From positions 1 through 5,690 of IMG/VR virus record IMGVR_UViG_3300045988_031857: a DNA stretch of 5,690 bases, one strand, 5' to 3'. The DNA comes from a virus. Shown here piece after piece: positions 1 through 5,690 of this stretch; position 1 is the stretch's first letter, and each line of letters starts with the position of its first letter. Below the pieces are notes generated by a model. It did no database searches and was not told where the DNA came from. It saw only the letters and a list, made by a program, of their open reading frames with translations. Position numbers and translations under genes: made by a program.

Positions 1-85
1 GTTTTTTTTTTTTTTTGGTAAAATGGAACTATAAACAAAATTATCGAAAGGAGGTTGAAAAAAATGGTAACTATGCAGGACATCA
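1..85. repeat. Terminal redundancy (copy 1) marking a circular genome. Bases 1-85 equal 5606-5690, giving a unit length of 5605 nt.
   Basis: Base-by-base comparison: G + T15 + GGTAAAATGGAACTATAAACAAAATTATCGAAAGGAGGTTGAAAAAAATGGTAACTATGCAGGACATCA occurs at both window ends. The repeat cuts through a terminator (stem at 5583-5606, T-tract at 2-16) and through the 5' end of an ORF, as expected for an assembly overlap rather than a biological repeat. Confidence 0.95.
16..24 (+). promoter_or_regulatory. Possible extended -10 promoter (TGgTAAAAT) immediately after the terminator T-tract. It would drive the 64->3895 gene chain.
   Basis: TGGTAAAAT at 16-24 (duplicate at 5621-5629) matches TGnTATAAT at 8 of 9 defined positions, and a T-rich tract lies upstream. 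There is no good -35 box. The predicted start near 31 lies upstream of the AGGAGG at 49-54. Confidence 0.3.
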
Positions 86-171
86 ACGCAATTTTCAGGC
101 ATCTCAAGAAAATCCTGGACATGCTGGATAAGATTTACAACGCACTGGAACACGACAAGGAGGAAGAGTAA
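64..171 (+). CDS. Hypothetical 35-aa peptide MVTMQDINAIFRHLKKILDMLDKIYNALEHDKEEE. It looks like a single amphipathic helix with an acidic tail; function unknown.
   Basis: AGGAGG at 49-54 sits 9 nt before the ATG at 64. The stop TAA at 169-171 overlaps the next ATG (TAATG), which suggests translational coupling. It is too short for the supplied ORF track. I recognise no family. Confidence 0.55.
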   Translation: MVTMQDINAIFRHLKKILDMLDKIYNALEHDKEEE

Positions 172-290
172 TGGCATACCGCAGCACTGTAAAACCGAAG
201 ACCGACAAGAAGGTGTTCACCAACACGGCAAAAAAGACCAAAAAAATCAATGTCAATCCGAAGCCCAGCAGGGGAGGAATCCGACTGTGA
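171..290 (+). CDS. Small basic DNA-binding/packaging peptide (gokushovirus ORF8 type, the phiX174 protein J analogue), 39 aa: MAYRSTVKPKTDKKVFTNTAKKTKKINVNPKPSRGGIRL.
   Basis: GGAGG at 159-163 sits 7 nt before the ATG at 171. The peptide is highly basic and ends in the RGGxR(L/F) C-terminus. It also carries the K-x-F-x-x-TA-x-x-T-x-x-x-N pattern that I recall from Chlamydia-phage, SpV4 and gut gokushovirus ORF8 peptides. Not in the ORF track (under 60 aa). Confidence 0.85.
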   Translation: MAYRSTVKPKTDKKVFTNTAKKTKKINVNPKPSRGGIRL

Positions 291-487
291 AAAGCATCAG
301 GAACATGGCATGCTGCACACTGACAGTCAGACTGAGATACGACACAGCAGCCGAAATTGATGATCTGGCGGAAGAACTGGGATGCAGCGTGCCGGCAGCG
401 ACACGAAAAGCAATCGAATATGGGATGAGATATCACAAAAAAGATATCATCAACGAAGTTATGGAGGATAACAACAATGACCTTTGA
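287..487 (+). CDS. 66-aa protein with a ribbon-helix-helix (CopG/Arc/MetJ-like) sequence pattern; putative DNA-binding regulator.
   Basis: A GTG start at 287 lies exactly 9 nt after GGAGG (273-277), the same spacing seen for three other genes here. It overlaps the upstream stop (GTGA). TLTVRL looks like a beta-strand, DTAAEIDDLAEELG like helix A, and CSVPAATRKAIEYGMRYH like helix B (G-x-S ... IR-x-A pattern). An alternative ATG start lies at 305. The fold assignment is by eye only. Confidence 0.7.
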   Translation: MKSIRNMACCTLTVRLRYDTAAEIDDLAEELGCSVPAATRKAIEYGMRYHKKDIINEVMEDNNNDL

Positions 488-734
488 ACTTTATGCAATC
501 AAGGACGAACTGGCGGGCACCTTCGGCAACATCATGGTCATCAATCCGATCGTCAAAGAACGCACCTTCAAGTGGATGACACAGGAGATGGAGAAAAGCG
601 ACTGCGAGGATAAGCGGGTCTACCACCTGGGACAGTACGACACCGAAACTGGCCTGATCACGCCGTGCATGCCGGAGCTGGAATGGAACATCGAGCAGGT
701 CAAGAAGACCATGGAGGAAAAAAAGGATGGTTAA
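477..734 (+). CDS. VP5: VP5-like non-structural protein of gokushoviruses, 85 aa (proposed functional analogue of phiX174 protein C).
   Basis: GGAGG at 463-467 sits 9 nt before the ATG at 477, which overlaps the upstream gene by 11 nt. The pattern LYAIKD...G.F......N....ER.F ... YHLGQYDTETG...P matches the VP5 signature I recall ([FY]-x-[IV]-x-D ... A-x-R-x-F ... L-x-x-x-G-x-[FY]-D-x-x-TG). Confidence 0.7.
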   Translation: MTFELYAIKDELAGTFGNIMVINPIVKERTFKWMTQEMEKSDCEDKRVYHLGQYDTETGLITPCMPELEWNIEQVKKTMEEKKDG

Positions 735-1218
735 AATCTTTACACCCTATGAAGATGAAAAACCAAAAAAGAAGCCGAACGAGCCGGGAAATATTATGGA
801 GCCGCAATACAGAGAGCGGTACGATGAAGACGGCAGACCTTACCTTGAACAGGTCGGAGAGGTCAACACGTATGAAAAAATCCAAAGCTACAAAGACGAA
901 GTCGACCCCATGAGCATCCTAGCAAGGTATGCAGCAGGTGATACAACGGTCATGGCTAATCCTGGCTGGTACATCGACACCAGCAAGCTGCCTGCAAACT
1001 ACATCGAATGGCGAAACCTGATGAACGAGCAAAAAGAAAAGTTCGAGACACTGCCGCTGGAAATCCGAAACAAATTCAACAACAGCTTTGACCAGTGGGC
1101 AGCAACCGCAGGAGAAGAAAGCTGGATGAAGGCAATGGGGTTTGAAAAACAGCAAGACGCACAAACAGAGCCAGCTGCAGCAACGGAAACGATTGTCCAA
1201 AAAGGAGAAAATAAATGA
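727..1218 (+). CDS. VP3: Internal scaffolding protein VP3, 163 aa.
   Basis: GGAGG at 713-717 sits 9 nt before the ATG at 727. The position immediately upstream of VP1 and the ATGA overlap with the VP1 start fit VP3. The motifs IQSYKDEVD, ILARYAAGDTTV and FETLPLEIRNKFNNSFDQW resemble the Chlamydia-phage-type scaffold family. Confidence 0.85.
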   Translation: MVKIFTPYEDEKPKKKPNEPGNIMEPQYRERYDEDGRPYLEQVGEVNTYEKIQSYKDEVDPMSILARYAAGDTTVMANPGWYIDTSKLPANYIEWRNLMNEQKEKFETLPLEIRNKFNNSFDQWAATAGEESWMKAMGFEKQQDAQTEPAAATETIVQKGENK

Positions 1219-2909
1219 ACAGAAATAGCGAACAGCATTATAACCAGGTACCACACGCAGAAATCCGGCGAAGCCGTTTCAAAAGAGATTTTTCGCTGCT
1301 GACCACACTCAACGAAGGCGACCTAGTACCGATCTACGTGGACGAGGTATTGCCCGGCGATACCTTCAAGATCGATGTAAACGGCCTAGTGCGCATGGCC
1401 ACTCCGCTGTATCCAGTTATGGATAACTGTAACATGGATATTTTCTTCTTCTTCGTACCGTGCCGACTGCTCTGGGAACACTTCGTGAACATGATGGGCC
1501 AGAACGACAAAAGCTTCTGGGCCGAAAATGTAGAATACACCACACCAAGAGCAAAAGCACCTACAGGAGGATGGAAAACAGGATCAATCGCAGACTATAT
1601 GGGCATACCAACCGGAGTGGAAAACATCGAAGTAAACCGAATGCCCTTCAATGCCTATGCGAAGATCTGGAACGAGTGGTTCCGGGATGAAAATTTACAA
1701 CAGCCTGTAGACGTGTACACCGGAGACGAAACGCTAACCGAGACACCCGTACACGGACCACTAACAGAGATGGAAAAACCGGAAAGAGGAATAGACATCC
1801 TCAAAGTCTGCAAACACAAAGACTACTTCACCAGCAGTCTACCGCAGCCACAGAAAGGCCAGGCCGTTCCGCTGCCACTGACGGGAAATGCACCGTTAAG
1901 AGCTTACAACACACAAGAACTAAACCAACAAAAAATAGGAACAGGCTTTTTTAACAACGAATATAACACCGGAGTTGTAAACCACACAAGTATATCGTTC
2001 ACAAAACAAGGAACGAAATTCTCCGTAAACAAAAACAACAACGGAAACACAGCACCGACAAGCGAAGGGCAGTATCTCGAGACAATGAGCCAAGACGATG
2101 CAAATTTTCTTGACGCATGGTTAGGCACAGACCTCACAACAGTAACCGCAACCACGATCAACGAACTTCGCAACGCCATCGCAGTGCAGCACATCCTGGA
2201 ACGAGACGCACGAACCGGAACCAGGTACAAAGAAATCCTAAAAGGGGCCTGGGGTGTAACCTCACCGGACGCACGACTTGACCGAAGCGAATACATCGGC
2301 GGATACAGAATGCCGATAAACATAAATCAAGTCATTCAAACATCAAGCAGCAGCCAGATCAGCCCGCAGGGCAACACAGCAGCATACAGCATGACAACCA
2401 TGTCCAAACACATGTGCACATACAGCGCAACAGAGCACGGCTATGTCCTGGGCCTGTGCTGCGTGCGAGTAGATCACAGCTATCAGCAAGGATTGAGCAA
2501 ACTGTGGACGAGAAGCACACGGTTCAGCTATTATGACCCGATGCTTGCAAACCTGGGAGAACAGCCGGTGCTCAATCAGGAAATCTATGCACAGGGCAGC
2601 GAAAAAGACGAGGAGGTTTTCGGCTACCAGGAGGCCTGGGCCGATTACAGGTACCGCACAAACATGGTAACATCCGAAATGCGGAGCACCTACGCACAGA
2701 GCCTGGATGCCTGGCACTATGCAGACCACTACACGAGCCTGCCGACACTCTCAAGCGACTGGATCAAAGAAGGCAGCGAGAACATCGCCAGAACGCTGGC
2801 AGTTGAAGACACCAACCACAACTATCAGTTCATCTGCAACTTTTACTTTGACCAAACCTGGACACGGCCCATGCCGATCTACAGCGTGCCTGGCCTTGAT
2901 ACGATCTAA
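1215..2909 (+). CDS. VP1: Major capsid protein VP1 (phiX174 F-protein family), 564 aa.
   Basis: The N-terminus has the hallmark QVPHAEIRRSRF...TTLNEGDLVPIYVDEVLPGDTF. Downstream lie INELRNAIAVQHILERDARTGTRYKEIL and RLDRSEYIGG. Both size and gene order are typical of gokushovirus VP1. Confidence 0.97.
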   Translation: MNRNSEQHYNQVPHAEIRRSRFKRDFSLLTTLNEGDLVPIYVDEVLPGDTFKIDVNGLVRMATPLYPVMDNCNMDIFFFFVPCRLLWEHFVNMMGQNDKSFWAENVEYTTPRAKAPTGGWKTGSIADYMGIPTGVENIEVNRMPFNAYAKIWNEWFRDENLQQPVDVYTGDETLTETPVHGPLTEMEKPERGIDILKVCKHKDYFTSSLPQPQKGQAVPLPLTGNAPLRAYNTQELNQQKIGTGFFNNEYNTGVVNHTSISFTKQGTKFSVNKNNNGNTAPTSEGQYLETMSQDDANFLDAWLGTDLTTVTATTINELRNAIAVQHILERDARTGTRYKEILKGAWGVTSPDARLDRSEYIGGYRMPININQVIQTSSSSQISPQGNTAAYSMTTMSKHMCTYSATEHGYVLGLCCVRVDHSYQQGLSKLWTRSTRFSYYDPMLANLGEQPVLNQEIYAQGSEKDEEVFGYQEAWADYRYRTNMVTSEMRSTYAQSLDAWHYADHYTSLPTLSSDWIKEGSENIARTLAVEDTNHNYQFICNFYFDQTWTRPMPIYSVPGLDTI

Positions 2910-2920
2910 GGAGGTGCACA

Positions 2921-3895
2921 ATGGCAGGATGGGGAGCAATCGCTTTACAGCTACTGCCGAGCGTGGTAGGAGCCCTGGGAAACGTTGCAAGCAGCTATAT
3001 CAACTCGAAAGGGTCAAACAGCAGCGCAATGAACCAAAGCACCATGAACCAACAGGTTGGAAACACGACCATGTCAGGAAACATGAGCCAAGCAACCGGA
3101 ACCCAAGGCGGACAGGTAACGCAGGGTAACACGTCTGGAATATCAGACATCCTGGGAAAGGCTTTAACAGGCATCACGGGAAACAACTCAGGGGCAGCAG
3201 CCAACTTTAACGCCGGACAGGCACAGACCGCAAACAATCTCCAGAACGGACAGTGGGCACTAGGAAATCTAATAAACCTATGGTCAAACGCCAGGGCAAA
3301 CGAGCTGACAGCACAGAGCCAAGCTTCAGCAATGGCATTTAACCGGGAAGAGAGCCAAAAAAATCGAGACTGGCAACAGATGATGTCCAGCACAGCCTAC
3401 CAAAGAGGGGTAGAAGACCTAAAGAAAGCAGGTCTGAACCCAGCACTGGCAGCATACAACGGATTTGGTGCAAGCTCAGGCAGCGGAGGCCAGGCAGCTG
3501 TAGGAAACACAACCTTTAGCCACGCTCAAGCATCAGGAGTTCCAGCAGCACACACGGCCACCATGCAAGCGATGTACGACTACGGGAACAATACATCTCA
3601 GTTCCTGCAGAACGCCATGCAGGCGATCAACACAGCAAAGGAAACAAAAAACTGGGAAGAAGCCGGTTACATGCAAAGTATCATGCAGAATATCGGCTCA
3701 ACATCAGCAAAGACCGTTGGAAACATCGCACAGACCGCAAACAACACCTACAACAACGAACAGTCTGGCAGACAGACTAAAACGCCGACAACCGTAGAAG
3801 CAGGCAAAAAGCTCACAGACGCTGGAAACAATGCGAAAACGAAGGCAGCAGGTGCAGCCCTGTACGGTCTCGGAAAAGCAATGCGAAAATGGTAA
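2921..3895 (+). CDS. VP2: Minor capsid / DNA pilot protein VP2, 324 aa.
   Basis: GGAGG at 2910-2914 sits 6 nt before the ATG. It has a hydrophobic N-terminus (WGAIALQLLPSVVGALGNVA) and a body rich in N, Q, G, S, T and A. The conserved MMSSTAYQRGVEDLKKAGLNPALA motif is typical of gokushovirus VP2, and the gene lies directly after VP1. Confidence 0.9.
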   Translation: MAGWGAIALQLLPSVVGALGNVASSYINSKGSNSSAMNQSTMNQQVGNTTMSGNMSQATGTQGGQVTQGNTSGISDILGKALTGITGNNSGAAANFNAGQAQTANNLQNGQWALGNLINLWSNARANELTAQSQASAMAFNREESQKNRDWQQMMSSTAYQRGVEDLKKAGLNPALAAYNGFGASSGSGGQAAVGNTTFSHAQASGVPAAHTATMQAMYDYGNNTSQFLQNAMQAINTAKETKNWEEAGYMQSIMQNIGSTSAKTVGNIAQTANNTYNNEQSGRQTKTPTTVEAGKKLTDAGNNAKTKAAGAALYGLGKAMRKW

Positions 3896-3924
3896 TTGAC
3901 AGACACAAAAAGGAGGTGTATAAT
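3896..3924 (+). promoter_or_regulatory. Promoter P1: perfect sigma70 consensus, TTGACA (3896-3901), 17-nt spacer, TATAAT (3919-3924).
   Basis: Read directly from the sequence. It begins the base after the VP2 stop (TAA 3893-3895). The predicted start near 3931 lies upstream of the 3966 ORF and rep. Confidence 0.8.
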
Positions 3925-3965
3925 ATGGGTGTAAGAATCGCACACCTAAAGTAGGAGGGCATACC

Positions 3966-4133
3966 ATGAGAAGCCAAATGGCAAAAAGAATGAACATCAA
4001 CCTAACACAAAAACAAATCGAAGAACTAGAGTTCATCAAAACATGCAAACTGTATGATAAATACATCGACAGCGATATCATAAGGGATGCAATTGATGTA
4101 TACGCAGAAGCGCTAGGGTACAAAACAGCATGA
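3966..4133 (+). CDS. 55-aa protein with an RHH-like pattern (MRSQMAKRMNINLTQKQIEELEFIKTCKLYDKYIDSDIIRDAIDVYAEALGYKTA); putative small regulator upstream of rep.
   Basis: GGAGG at 3954-3958 sits 7 nt before the ATG at 3966, and this is the first ORF after promoter P1. RMNINLT looks like a beta-strand, QKQIEELEFIK like helix A and SDIIRDAIDVYAEAL like helix B. Not in the ORF track (under 60 aa). The fold call is by eye and weaker than for 287-487. Confidence 0.65.
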   Translation: MRSQMAKRMNINLTQKQIEELEFIKTCKLYDKYIDSDIIRDAIDVYAEALGYKTA

Positions 4134-4208
4134 GTTACGGCTACCGCCTCACTCAGGGAAGCAACATTTATCCATCACGAGAAGCGAGCAGCATCTAAAT
4201 TTTGTGTC

Positions 4209-4249
4209 AATGGGCCCCAATAAGATCAAGAAGGTTATTGGGGCCCATT
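4209..4249. repeat. Perfect inverted repeat / hairpin: AATGGGCCCCAATAA (4209-4223), an 11-nt loop GATCAAGAAGG, then TTATTGGGGCCCATT (4235-4249).
   Basis: The two 15-nt arms are exact reverse complements. The repeat ends 6 nt before the rep AGGAGG (4256-4261). No T-run follows it, so it is not a canonical intrinsic terminator. Confidence 0.9.
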
Positions 4250-4273
4250 CAGGGAAGGAGGAATGAAACATCT

Positions 4274-5377
4274 ATGCCATGTACGAGGCCGTTGGTTAGA
4301 ACCGTCATCAACAGACAAGAAAGAGTTGTCAGCCTGAAGGCATACTTATCAAAAACAGGCGAAAGGCTAGAGTTTGACGCAGATCAAAGACAGCAGAAGT
4401 GGAACGAACAGCGAGTTAAAAAGCTGCTCAAAGAACAGAATGCTCAGCTGCTACCATGCGGGCACTGTCCTGGATGCAAAATGGCAAACGCAGCATCATG
4501 GGCGAACCGAATGGAAATGGAGCTACCATACCATGAAAACGCCTGGTTTCTAACACTCACATATGATAACGAAAATGTCCCATATCGAGCGACATGGGAC
4601 ACACTGACAGGCGAAGTGATAACAGAAAACCTCAGTCTATGCTATGAGGACATGCAAAGATTCTGGAAACGATTGAGAAGGCACATAGAATACCACGAAA
4701 AAGGAAAAGGAAAGCTGATGTATTTCCAAGCTGGCGAATACGGCAGCCAAACACACAGACCACACTATCACGCAATCGTATACGATCTACCAATAAAACA
4801 GGAAGATTTAAAAGTTTACAAGAAAGAAAGAGGATTCACGTGCTATAACTGCGAATGGCTAGAAAAAATCTGGGGCATGGGACACGTCATCCTAGCACCA
4901 GCAGAATGGCGATCTATGGCATACACAGCAAGGTACACAACAAAAAAGATTTACGGAAAGGACGGCAAAAAATTTTATGAAGAACTAGGTATCATGCCGG
5001 AACAGTGCAATATGAGCAAAAAACCGGCAATCGGCGCACAATACTACTATGACCATGCAGCGGAAATCTACGAAAAAGATCAAATACAGCTAAAGAACGG
5101 AAAAATCTGTAAACCGCCAAGATACTTTGACAAGCTATTTGACATCGACCATGGAGCAAAGCCACTGACAGATGAAGAAGTGCAAAAAATCGAGGATATA
5201 ACAGAAAAAACCGAATCCGAAGAACTGAAAGCAATCAAACGAGAACGCCGAAGAATCGCAAACGACACTCTCTTTGCTCAGCTCAAGCAGACCGGCCTGA
5301 CCATGCAAGATTATTATAAACTGAAAGACGAAAAAATACAAGAACGAATGAGCAAATTGATTCGCACAGAGGTCTAG
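4274..5377 (+). CDS. VP4: Replication initiation protein VP4 (HUH rolling-circle endonuclease, phiX174 A-protein superfamily), 367 aa from the ATG at 4274.
   Basis: It carries PCGHCPGCKMANAASWANR (Cys cluster), FLTLTYD (motif 1), RPHYHAIVY (HUH, HYH at 4763-4771) and AYTARYTTKK (Y-x-x-x-Y-x-x-K, Tyr codons at 4922 and 4934). The track's start at 4202 is a TTG that reads through the hairpin. The ATG at 4274 has AGGAGG 12 nt upstream. The start is less certain than the gene identity. Confidence 0.93.
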   Translation: MPCTRPLVRTVINRQERVVSLKAYLSKTGERLEFDADQRQQKWNEQRVKKLLKEQNAQLLPCGHCPGCKMANAASWANRMEMELPYHENAWFLTLTYDNENVPYRATWDTLTGEVITENLSLCYEDMQRFWKRLRRHIEYHEKGKGKLMYFQAGEYGSQTHRPHYHAIVYDLPIKQEDLKVYKKERGFTCYNCEWLEKIWGMGHVILAPAEWRSMAYTARYTTKKIYGKDGKKFYEELGIMPEQCNMSKKPAIGAQYYYDHAAEIYEKDQIQLKNGKICKPPRYFDKLFDIDHGAKPLTDEEVQKIEDITEKTESEELKAIKRERRRIANDTLFAQLKQTGLTMQDYYKLKDEKIQERMSKLIRTEV

Positions 5378-5440
5378 GGCATCTACAAACAACGAGAACG
5401 GCCAATAAGAGCACAAACCGAAATCTAACCTAAAAGCTAT

Positions 5441-5482
5441 GCTGTCCTCTATTCGTCGGCCGACCACGGCCGACCGGACAGC
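5441..5482. repeat. GC-rich composite stem-loop. The outer stem is GCTGTCC (5441-5447) / GGACAGC (5476-5482). The inner stem is GTCGGCCG (5455-5462) / CGGCCGAC (5467-5474) with loop ACCA.
   Basis: Complementarity was checked base by base. There are 15 bp in total, with an asymmetric internal loop (TCTATTC against C). It is a GC island in the otherwise A-rich rep-downstream intergenic region, about 20 nt upstream of the P2 -35 box. Confidence 0.8.
5457..5475. repeat. Tandem direct repeat CGGCCGACC-A-CGGCCGACC (10-nt period). The first copy lies within the 10-nt palindrome GTCGGCCGAC (5455-5464).
   Basis: Read directly from the sequence. This is the same DNA as the inner stem above, so it can act either as a hairpin in ssDNA or as a repeated site on one face of the helix in dsDNA. 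Confidence 0.85.
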
Positions 5483-5501
5483 CAAAAAATTAAAATAATA
5501 C

Positions 5502-5530
5502 TTGACAAGTGTATATTTTAGGTGTATAAT
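5502..5530 (+). promoter_or_regulatory. Promoter P2: perfect sigma70 consensus, TTGACA (5502-5507), 17-nt spacer, TATAAT (5525-5530), with an A/T-rich UP-like tract at 5484-5500.
   Basis: Read directly from the sequence. It shares the 12-mer AGGTGTATAATA (5520-5531) with P1 (3914-3925). Confidence 0.8.
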
Positions 5531-5536
5531 AGATGC

Positions 5537-5621
5537 AATCTGTGAAAAACTCAAAGAATACGAAACAAATAACTAAAATCAGCAAGGTGGACAAAATCCC
5601 ACCTTGTTTTTTTTTTTTTTT
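5537..5621 (+). ncRNA. Candidate short transcript (roughly 76-85 nt) from the P2 start to the intrinsic terminator. Alternatively it is a leader/attenuator for the downstream operon.
   Basis: This is defined only by P2 lying next to the terminator. The body (5537-5582) is A-rich with no obvious internal structure, and the 3' end is a hairpin plus U-tail. The boundaries are predicted, not observed. Confidence 0.3.
5583..5621 (+). terminator. Rho-independent terminator: stem CAAGGTGG (5583-5590) / CCACCTTG (5599-5606), 8-nt loop ACAAAATC, followed by T15 (5607-5621, equal to 2-16).
   Basis: The stem complementarity was checked base by base, and the T-run is an uninterrupted 15 T. It is the only hairpin-plus-T-tract I can find on the + strand, so it probably ends rep and whole-genome transcripts. 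It straddles the linearisation point. Confidence 0.85.
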
Positions 5622-5690
5622 GGTAAAATGGAACTATAAACAAAATTATCGAAAGGAGGTTGAAAAAAATGGTAACTATGCAGGACATCA
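5606..5690. repeat. Terminal redundancy (copy 2). It includes a truncated second copy of the 64-171 ORF start (ATG at 5669).
   Basis: Identical to 1-85 (see above). Confidence 0.95.

Follow-up and report, generated by a model that had tools for sequence, protein, structure and literature searches.

The stretch of 5,690 nucleotides (nt) at positions 1 to 5,690 of the virus record IMGVR_UViG_3300045988_031857, referred to below as the window, carries in the 291-nt gap between the stop codon of its replication gene (Rep) and the first gene of the structural block a consensus promoter, P2, followed closely by an intrinsic terminator. We conclude that this P2-terminator unit is very probably the decayed remnant of a moron-like accessory-gene cassette, and neither a purpose-built small RNA (sRNA) gene nor an attenuator. 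We favour this reading because all 28 informative relatives with P2 have an open reading frame (ORF) at the site while the window has none, because a single clean deletion separates it from relatives 89–91% identical to it, because the body of the predicted RNA is coding sequence in those relatives, because full, stub and empty alleles occur independently at the same site in close relatives, and because the cassette bears the hallmarks of morons in its GC content, its variety of cargo and its horizontal sharing. The sequence-only reading of this DNA had described a perfect P2 (TTGACA-17-TATAAT with an A/T tract upstream), all elements of which are present, and had proposed that the unit is an sRNA gene or an attenuator, a proposal which the comparison with relatives does not bear out.

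The cassette site in the window and its relatives

Relatives carrying P2 were collected by exact searches with the 29-mer promoter pattern, two positions of which were left free, and came from 12 IMG/VR records and 17 human-gut metagenome contigs. In each of the 28 informative ones the promoter is followed by a leader, a ribosome-binding site (RBS), a variable ORF of 51–84 amino acids (aa), and then the terminator and the motif TGnTAnAAT. Between the -10 box and the T-run these relatives have 220–448 nt, compared to 76 nt, with no ORF, in the window. A distant BLAST search with the intergenic region matched gut and pig gokushoviruses over a GC-rich hairpin and the promoter, and gave a further match inside a small ORF of MZ821031; the loci found in this way show the same promoter, RBS, ORF of ~50–60 aa and hairpin with T-run, and then TGGTAAAAT. 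The cargo ORFs fall into at least seven families with no evident mutual similarity, as judged by inspection. One locus (L009, promoter at 4445–4473) has two consecutive small ORFs of 54 and 71 aa before the terminator, and the slot is able to carry more than one gene.

Genome-wide identity of 89–91% was found between the window and L004, L005 and L006, and the BLAST alignments break at 5531 (L004, L006) or 5531–5535 (L005). Multiple alignment reduces the difference to a single clean gap, of 143 nt relative to L004 and L005 and of 155 nt relative to L006, L022 and L032, which starts directly behind TATAAT and stops where the final 14 codons of the ORF (DAICEKLKEYE...) begin. The relatives read TATAAT-AAAGGTGTAGAAAGGA...(RBS)...ATG...GAATGGAC-AGATGCAATCTGTGAAAAACTCAAAGAATACGAAAACAAATAA and the window reads TATAAT-AGATGCAATCTGTGAAAAACTCAAAGAATACGAAACAAATAA; lost are the leader, the RBS, the start codon and ~37 codons, or about three quarters of the ORF. 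What is left of the cargo gene reads DAICEKLKEYETNN before its stop and has in addition lost 1 nt from an A-run (GAAAAC to GAAAC), which puts its final codons out of frame, while the tail of the relatives' ORF reads EWTDAICEKLKEYENK before its stop. Changes in L005 are synonymous and conservative, as expected of coding sequence, and at the DNA level positions 5531–5579 of the window are homologous to the C-terminal codons of the small ORF in MZ821031. By these alignments, the A-rich body of the predicted RNA is what remains, as 14 C-terminal codons, of a small protein gene found intact in all relatives with P2. A peptide starting from the ATG at 5533 was considered and rejected, as this codon precedes the expected start site, lacks an RBS, is out of frame with the remnant and would be read through the terminator.

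Exact searches for the junction returned 0 matches in IMG/VR and in JGI metagenome contigs. A second copy of the allele was found via an exact-protein look-up of the neighbouring 35-aa gene, which is present in the window's exact form on six contigs, including L049 (ENA ERZ1304816, 5660 nt, listed for two samples). Junction and 1-nt loss from the A-run are both identical in L049, and four further similar places for this contig carry the same exact 35-aa gene. Because the junction recurs identically in another assembly, we regard the allele as real; it is a circulating variant.

The range of alleles at the site was extended by a terminator-anchored search, which found L033, and by an exact look-up of the 55-aa protein encoded upstream of Rep in the window, which found ten genomes (L039–L048). 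L033 is a complete 5.5-kb circle, 85–94% identical to the window, with the second consensus promoter of these genomes (P1, upstream of the 55-aa ORF) and neither P2 nor a cargo ORF; its site consists of the GC-rich hairpin, ...CCAACAACCATAAAATCAG, the same terminator, T17, TGATAGAAT and the structural operon. Such empty sites, with the terminator kept, were found in L033, L039–L043, L045 and L048, and thus in seven of the ten genomes with the exact 55-aa protein, one of which (L046) has the full cassette, as do L004, L005, L006, L022 and L032. L044 (~3430–3470) and L047 (4515–4560) hold a promoterless stub of 6–7 codons, reading CCAAAAACT(C/T)AAAGAATACGAGAACAAATAA, which a deletion between two 7-nt AAAAACT repeats, one in the left flank and one in the ORF tail, would account for. 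Another promoterless stub, in L035 (2980–3170) from a more distant clade, has 31 codons left, with P2 and the 5' half of the ORF missing; this remnant is annotated by the gene caller as a 35-aa protein. One copy of a TAAAAT direct repeat flanks the cassette on each side, and empty sites show a single copy (...CCAACAAC(C/T)(A/T)TAAAATCAGCAAGG...).

Taken at the level of sequence, the site displays a full series of gain, loss and decay, of which the window represents one stage with the promoter retained. P2 and its cargo are optional, and P2 is dispensable in the closest relatives, because eight close genomes without it retain both terminator and operon. The terminator, unchanged at empty sites and common to full, stub and empty alleles, is by the same comparison a backbone element and not one brought in by the cassette.

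We suggest the following model for this human-gut gokushovirus group. In the normal layout, P2 is followed by a short leader with an RBS and one variable small ORF (rarely two). P1 would transcribe the 55-aa ORF and Rep, with the transcript ending at the single terminator, and P2, where present, would transcribe the cargo and make use of the same terminator. As there is no terminator after the pilot protein gene (VP2), transcripts from P3, a candidate promoter of the structural operon located directly after the T-run, would run through Rep to the single terminator, which would also stop the polymerase from endlessly transcribing round the circle. In the lineage of the window, a deletion of 143–155 nt fused the -10 box to the last 14 codons, and a 1-nt slip followed. 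P2, if active in the host, would still make a non-coding RNA of ~77–85 nt (from ~5537 to ~5613–5621). A short RNA of this kind is probably still made in the window, and to this extent the default product of ~80 nt expected by the sequence-only reading is plausible, while a role as a purpose-built sRNA or as an attenuator leader is not upheld; we infer that the RNA is a by-product of gene decay and has no function of its own.

Moron-like features and competing explanations

P2 and its cargo can be described, from their sequence features, as an optional, AT-richer, moron-like cassette placed between Rep and the backbone terminator. Morons were defined in tailed phages (HK97 gene 15 type, PMC3594210). 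Like them, the cassette is an optional insertion separating genes that adjoin one another in close relatives, with presence and absence seen between the same flanks (L004, L005, L006 and L033, compared whole, ~85–94% identical to the window). Like them, it has a strong sigma-70-type promoter, here a 12/12 match that is present or absent together with the cargo, and an intrinsic terminator at its end. At 31–42%, the GC content of the cassette is lower than the 46–50% of the genomes (13 relatives), and its variable cargo is shared horizontally with unrelated phages.

This last point concerns cargo family C (..AAALYDGGWRS..AICEKLKEYE), 49-aa homologues of which, ~65% identical, are present in siphovirus-like contigs of 30–56 kb. 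These contigs encode Sipho_Gp157, ERF (in one of L036–L038), helix-turn-helix regulators and GH25-type (plus CHAP or M15) lysins. The homologues indicate, by sequence similarity, gene sharing between microviruses and tailed phages, and the lysin types give a hint of a Gram-positive host. In L036–L038 (6001–6150) the family C homologues lie in a small-gene cluster of 35–48 kb siphovirus-like contigs. In MZ821031 (L003, 1–621) the promoter is TTGAAA-17-TATAAT with a TTGACA box 5 nt from the -10 box, and the family C ORF is directly followed by a Peptidase_M15_3 gene, in place of the terminator. The cargo proteins matched no Pfam or PHROG family, and searches of these proteins and of the 55-aa ORF against Pfam, PHROGs and PDB sequences gave no informative match.

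Unlike morons, the cassette is carried by a 5.6-kb single-stranded DNA (ssDNA) microvirus and not by a double-stranded DNA tailed phage, and shows no sign of lysogeny or of a prophage: the P2 promoter pattern had 0 matches in 185,579 species genomes, which gave no prophage or host lead, and no integrase-type gene was seen among the ORFs scanned. The copy in the window also lacks an expressible gene, its 14 codons being frameshifted and devoid of start codon and RBS. The window thus holds a moron remnant and not a working moron.

Several points weigh against our interpretation. The activities of P2, the terminator and P3 are predicted solely from consensus matches and conservation. The invariance of P2 is partly a sampling effect, as the exact promoter pattern was used to collect the relatives. 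Morons bring their own terminator, whereas here the hairpin and T-run are also present, unchanged, at empty sites and the cassette supplies the promoter only. That the event was a deletion in the window, and not a gain in the relatives, follows from parsimony and from the start-less 3' fragment of the ORF. Finally, the stub keeps a perfect promoter in more than one assembly, which fits a recent origin but is also compatible with some selective value, through read-through or an exapted RNA.

The last point leads to the possibility that the gutted cassette was recruited anew, either as an abundant, ~80-nt newborn sRNA that is stabilised by the terminator and acts in trans on mRNAs of host or phage, or with P2 being kept since read-through boosts the structural genes relative to empty-site siblings. 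In the work of Raghavan and colleagues, sRNAs reportedly arise from decayed genes or transcriptional noise. As in such proto-sRNAs, a promoter and a terminator that flank what is left of an ORF would give rise to a short transcript open to later recruitment by selection. Unlike them, the window shows no sign of recruitment: conservation is limited to one allele, neither a seed nor a target signal is seen, and the terminator is the sole structure, and we consider this outcome unlikely. If its first version were true, a newborn sRNA would have been caught just after its birth from a protein gene, the first in Microviridae.

Similarly improbable, in our view, is a leaky or regulated attenuator, in which P2 would chiefly drive the structural operon, with the terminator setting or regulating entry into it. 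Of the promoters upstream of the structural genes, P2 looks the strongest, and the terminator lies in between; some read-through of an intrinsic terminator is likely, and P2 may add to structural transcription where it is present. The comparison drawn by the sequence-only reading was with phiX174, which has four weak-to-moderate terminators, TJ, TF, TG and TH, inside its structural region that stop only 20–70% of transcription (bioRxiv 10.1101/2020.03.05.979765). The window resembles phiX174 in being a unidirectional circular microvirus genome whose transcripts would be defined by few promoters and intrinsic terminators, with a terminator upstream of highly expressed structural genes. It differs in having a single hairpin, located between the end of Rep and the structural start with a -10 motif of its own behind it, in that the promoter directly upstream of this terminator is optional, and in that a 10-pair G+C-rich stem with T15 looks canonical and efficient, in contrast to the weak terminators of phiX174.

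An attenuator is further contradicted by most of the closest relatives (seven of the ten genomes with the exact 55-aa protein, plus L033), which have the same terminator and operon without P2, and by the cargo relatives, where a complete ORF between P2 and the terminator gives a gene-end and not a leader layout. An obligatory promoter-leader-operon order was thus not found, nor were alternative structures or a sensor: for positions 5537–5621 the minimum free energy fold equals the centroid (a weak 5' hairpin plus the terminator), with no segment complementary to the terminator arms that could act as an antiterminator, and no Rfam riboswitch or leader family was matched. The conserved extended -10 motif after the T-run also speaks against it.

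A functional trans-acting sRNA gene with an A-rich single-stranded seed, regulating mRNAs of host or phage and possibly newly exapted from the gene remnant, has a still lower probability. A strong promoter, a weakly structured body of ~50 nt and a hairpin with a U-tail make up the layout of many bacterial sRNAs, and the allele, with its promoter intact, is present in more than one assembly. At the level of sequence only, the window has a promoter and a terminator around a non-coding transcript in the range of ~50–300 nt. However, in the relatives with P2 the body forms the 3'-terminal part of a protein gene, the layout is confined to one deletion allele with 0 exact matches to its junction in IMG/VR and the JGI metagenome contigs, and the closest relatives do without P2 altogether. 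Conservation of 5537–5621, proposed earlier as a check, is not seen: relatives have a protein gene, another stub or nothing at the site, and there is no conserved unit or seed. No described RNA family was recognized either, as an Rfam 15 scan of the whole window by E-value gave SIB_RNA as the best match, at 17.5 bits against a gathering score of 56 (E = 7.4). The pairing of the RNA with the phage's own transcripts, at -16.6 kcal/mol against a shuffled mean of -16.2, is no better than chance.

We attach just as little weight to the idea that hairpin, T-run and TGGTAAAAT act mainly as ssDNA elements, in complementary-strand priming or as a Rep nick site, even though the hairpin also forms in the viral-strand DNA fold and the block is conserved across clades only ~70% identical. 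To our knowledge, no gokushovirus replication origin has been mapped. Intrinsic terminators are specifically marked by a stem directly before 12–18 T, joined in many relatives by an upstream A-tract, and the element sits exactly at the end of the Rep and cargo units. The stretch TTG(A/G)TA...CTATAAAC after the T-run was tried as a phiX174-like Rep origin and rejected, since the 30-nt phiX174 origin scored at the level of shuffled sequence in the window and four relatives. A DNA-level role would in any case leave the verdict on P2 and the stub unchanged.

An artefact of assembly or multiple-displacement amplification is hardly credible, for although the window is evidently a metagenomic assembly with an 85-nt terminal repeat, and its junction has 1 nt of microhomology and no exact IMG/VR or JGI match, junction and 1-nt loss are identical in the independently recorded L049 contig of different length, and other independent deletion alleles at the site mark such events as natural.

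Genome organisation and transcription signals

The window is, by its gene content, a gokushovirus-like microvirus, with the families Phage_F capsid, Chlamy_scaf, ORF5, pilot protein and Rep identified (Table 1). Positions 1–85 repeat positions 5606–5690, indicating a circular genome of ~5605 nt; the terminal repeats of relatives are 55, 85 or 119 nt long. As the repeat contains both the T15 tract and the TGGTAAAAT motif, each of them is present twice in the window. Because the genome is circular, the first structural gene, at 64, stands directly 3' of the terminator.

Table 1. Positions of genes and sequence elements in the window, in genome order
Feature	Position	Strand	Remarks
35-aa ORF	64–171	+	First gene of the structural operon
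Basic 39-aa protein	171–290	+	phrog_10695
66-aa ORF	Between the 39-aa gene and ORF5/VP5	+	
ORF5/VP5	477–734	+	
Scaffold protein VP3	727–1218	+	Chlamy_scaf
Capsid protein VP1	1215–2909	+	Phage_F
Pilot protein VP2	2921–3895	+	
P1	3896–3924	+	Other perfect sigma-70-type promoter; upstream of the 55-aa ORF and Rep/VP4
55-aa ORF	3966–4133	+	Downstream of P1
Rep/VP4	4202–5377	+	
GC-rich hairpin	5442–5481	+	CTGTCC...GTCGGCC-loop-GGCCGAC..GGACAG; DNA fold; downstream of the Rep stop codon
TAAAAT direct repeat, left copy	5491–5496	+	Brackets the cassette
P2	5502–5530	+	TTGACA (5502–5507), 17-nt spacer, TATAAT (5525–5530); 12/12 consensus
Deletion junction	5530–5531	+	TATAAT/AGATGC; from alignments; 1 nt microhomology
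Cargo ORF remnant	5532–5576	+	No start codon, no RBS
TAAAAT direct repeat, right copy	5574–5579	+	Brackets the cassette
Intrinsic terminator	5581–5621	+	10-pair stem, 8-nt loop, T15
Candidate extended -10 promoter P3	5621–5629 (= 16–24)	+	TGGTAAAAT; structural operon
RBS and start codon of the first structural gene	5652–5671	+	AAAGGAGG and ATG (= 64–66); genes of relatives called identically

P2 and P1 are the two perfect TTGACA-17-TATAAT sites of the window, against 0.01 expected from 200 dinucleotide shuffles, and P2 is preceded by an A/T-rich tract at 5483–5501 (CCAAAAAATTAAAATAATAC). P1 is found in every close relative, including those without P2. The -10 region and leader of P1 (3896–3965) are paralogous to the P2 leaders of L007, L010 and L013, the shared pattern being GGTGTATAATA.GGGTGTAAGAA..GCACACC....TAGGAGG...ACCATGA.AAGC, a likeness that offers homologous sequence for recombination of one site with the other. 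Full P2 regions contain three copies of the pentamer GTGTA spaced 13 nt apart, the third of which was removed by the deletion in the window; these repeats could function as a common operator or form a stabilising 5' hairpin.

Strong conservation marks the 55-aa ORF downstream of P1, which was found in 229 blocks of the collection. A low-confidence AlphaFold model of the protein (pLDDT, the predicted local distance difference test score, of 66) has an extended N-terminus followed by two helices, a modelled layout compatible with a ribbon-helix-helix regulator.

The GC-rich hairpin downstream of Rep is kept in full, stub and empty alleles and has no T-run after it. In L041 a two-sided change (GTCGgCC/GGcCGAC to GTCGaCC/GGtCGAC) preserves its pairing. 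By comparison of the alleles it is the backbone element directly to the left of the cassette insertion point, and it could serve as an RNA 3' end or stability element, or as an ssDNA structure.

The hairpin and T15 described by the sequence-only reading are confirmed, with a stem that extends from 8 to 10 pairs over 5581–5608; the core consists of CAAGGTGG (5583–5590), the loop ACAAAATC, CCACCTTG (5599–5606) and T15 (5607–5621). For the RNA 5537–5621 the predicted folding energy is -18.3 kcal/mol (z = -3.24), a stability reached in 0 of 200 shuffles. The site is the only terminator-like one on the coding strand of the genome, and all 19 distinct relatives have a hairpin of ~10–17 pairs before at least 9 T, built from three different stem sequences. 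RNAalifold, run on an unrefined MAFFT alignment of 13 terminators, returned only four pairs, of which two show two-sided changes; since the hairpin types do not align in register over the outer stem, per-sequence folds were relied on. The features that define an intrinsic terminator, namely a G+C-rich hairpin, a U-tract, a position at the end of a unit and a structure kept in relatives, are all present.

Transcription of the structural operon is most likely started by its own extended -10 element, TGnTAnAAT (P3), as its conservation suggests, plus possibly some read-through. The hexamer TA[AGT]AAT follows the T-run in 22 of 22 distinct relatives, with TG at -15/-14 in 19 of the 22, and the motif is kept in genomes without P2, while the sequence 3' of it differs between clades. 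This comparison backs the earlier suggestion that a separate extended -10 after the T-tract makes the P2-terminator unit an independent transcription unit. A TTG(G/A)TA sequence was considered as the -35 box and rejected, as it does not fit clades having the RBS within 12 nt. L033 has a weak TTGATA-16-AAAAAT match, and the motif continues to be read as an extended -10.

Implications for gokushoviruses and for sRNA prediction

In the literature searched on gokushovirus morons, promoters, terminators and hypervariable regions, the slot is not described. Gokushovirus defensive hypervariable regions were reportedly placed inside the pilot protein gene VP2 by Kirchberger et al. (2021, PNAS). The slot is similar in being a hypervariable, presumably conflict-related locus, and differs from the regions in VP2 in being a promoter-driven small-ORF cassette between Rep and the terminator.

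The finding in the window itself is one of ordinary gene decay in a modestly interesting accessory slot. It illustrates that an sRNA-like layout can arise by deletion of the coding part between a promoter and the next terminator, and when phage genomes are scanned for such layouts, comparison with relatives should precede the call of an RNA gene.

For the human-gut gokushovirus group, the result is a slot with a consensus promoter, at least seven small cargo ORFs and frequent gain, loss and decay. Because microviruses have very limited accessory repertoires, according to a review of microvirus diversity (PMC9239249), a moron-like slot would be a natural place to seek anti-defence or exclusion genes. 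The series of full, stub and empty alleles amounts to a natural experiment on what cargo and P2 contribute.

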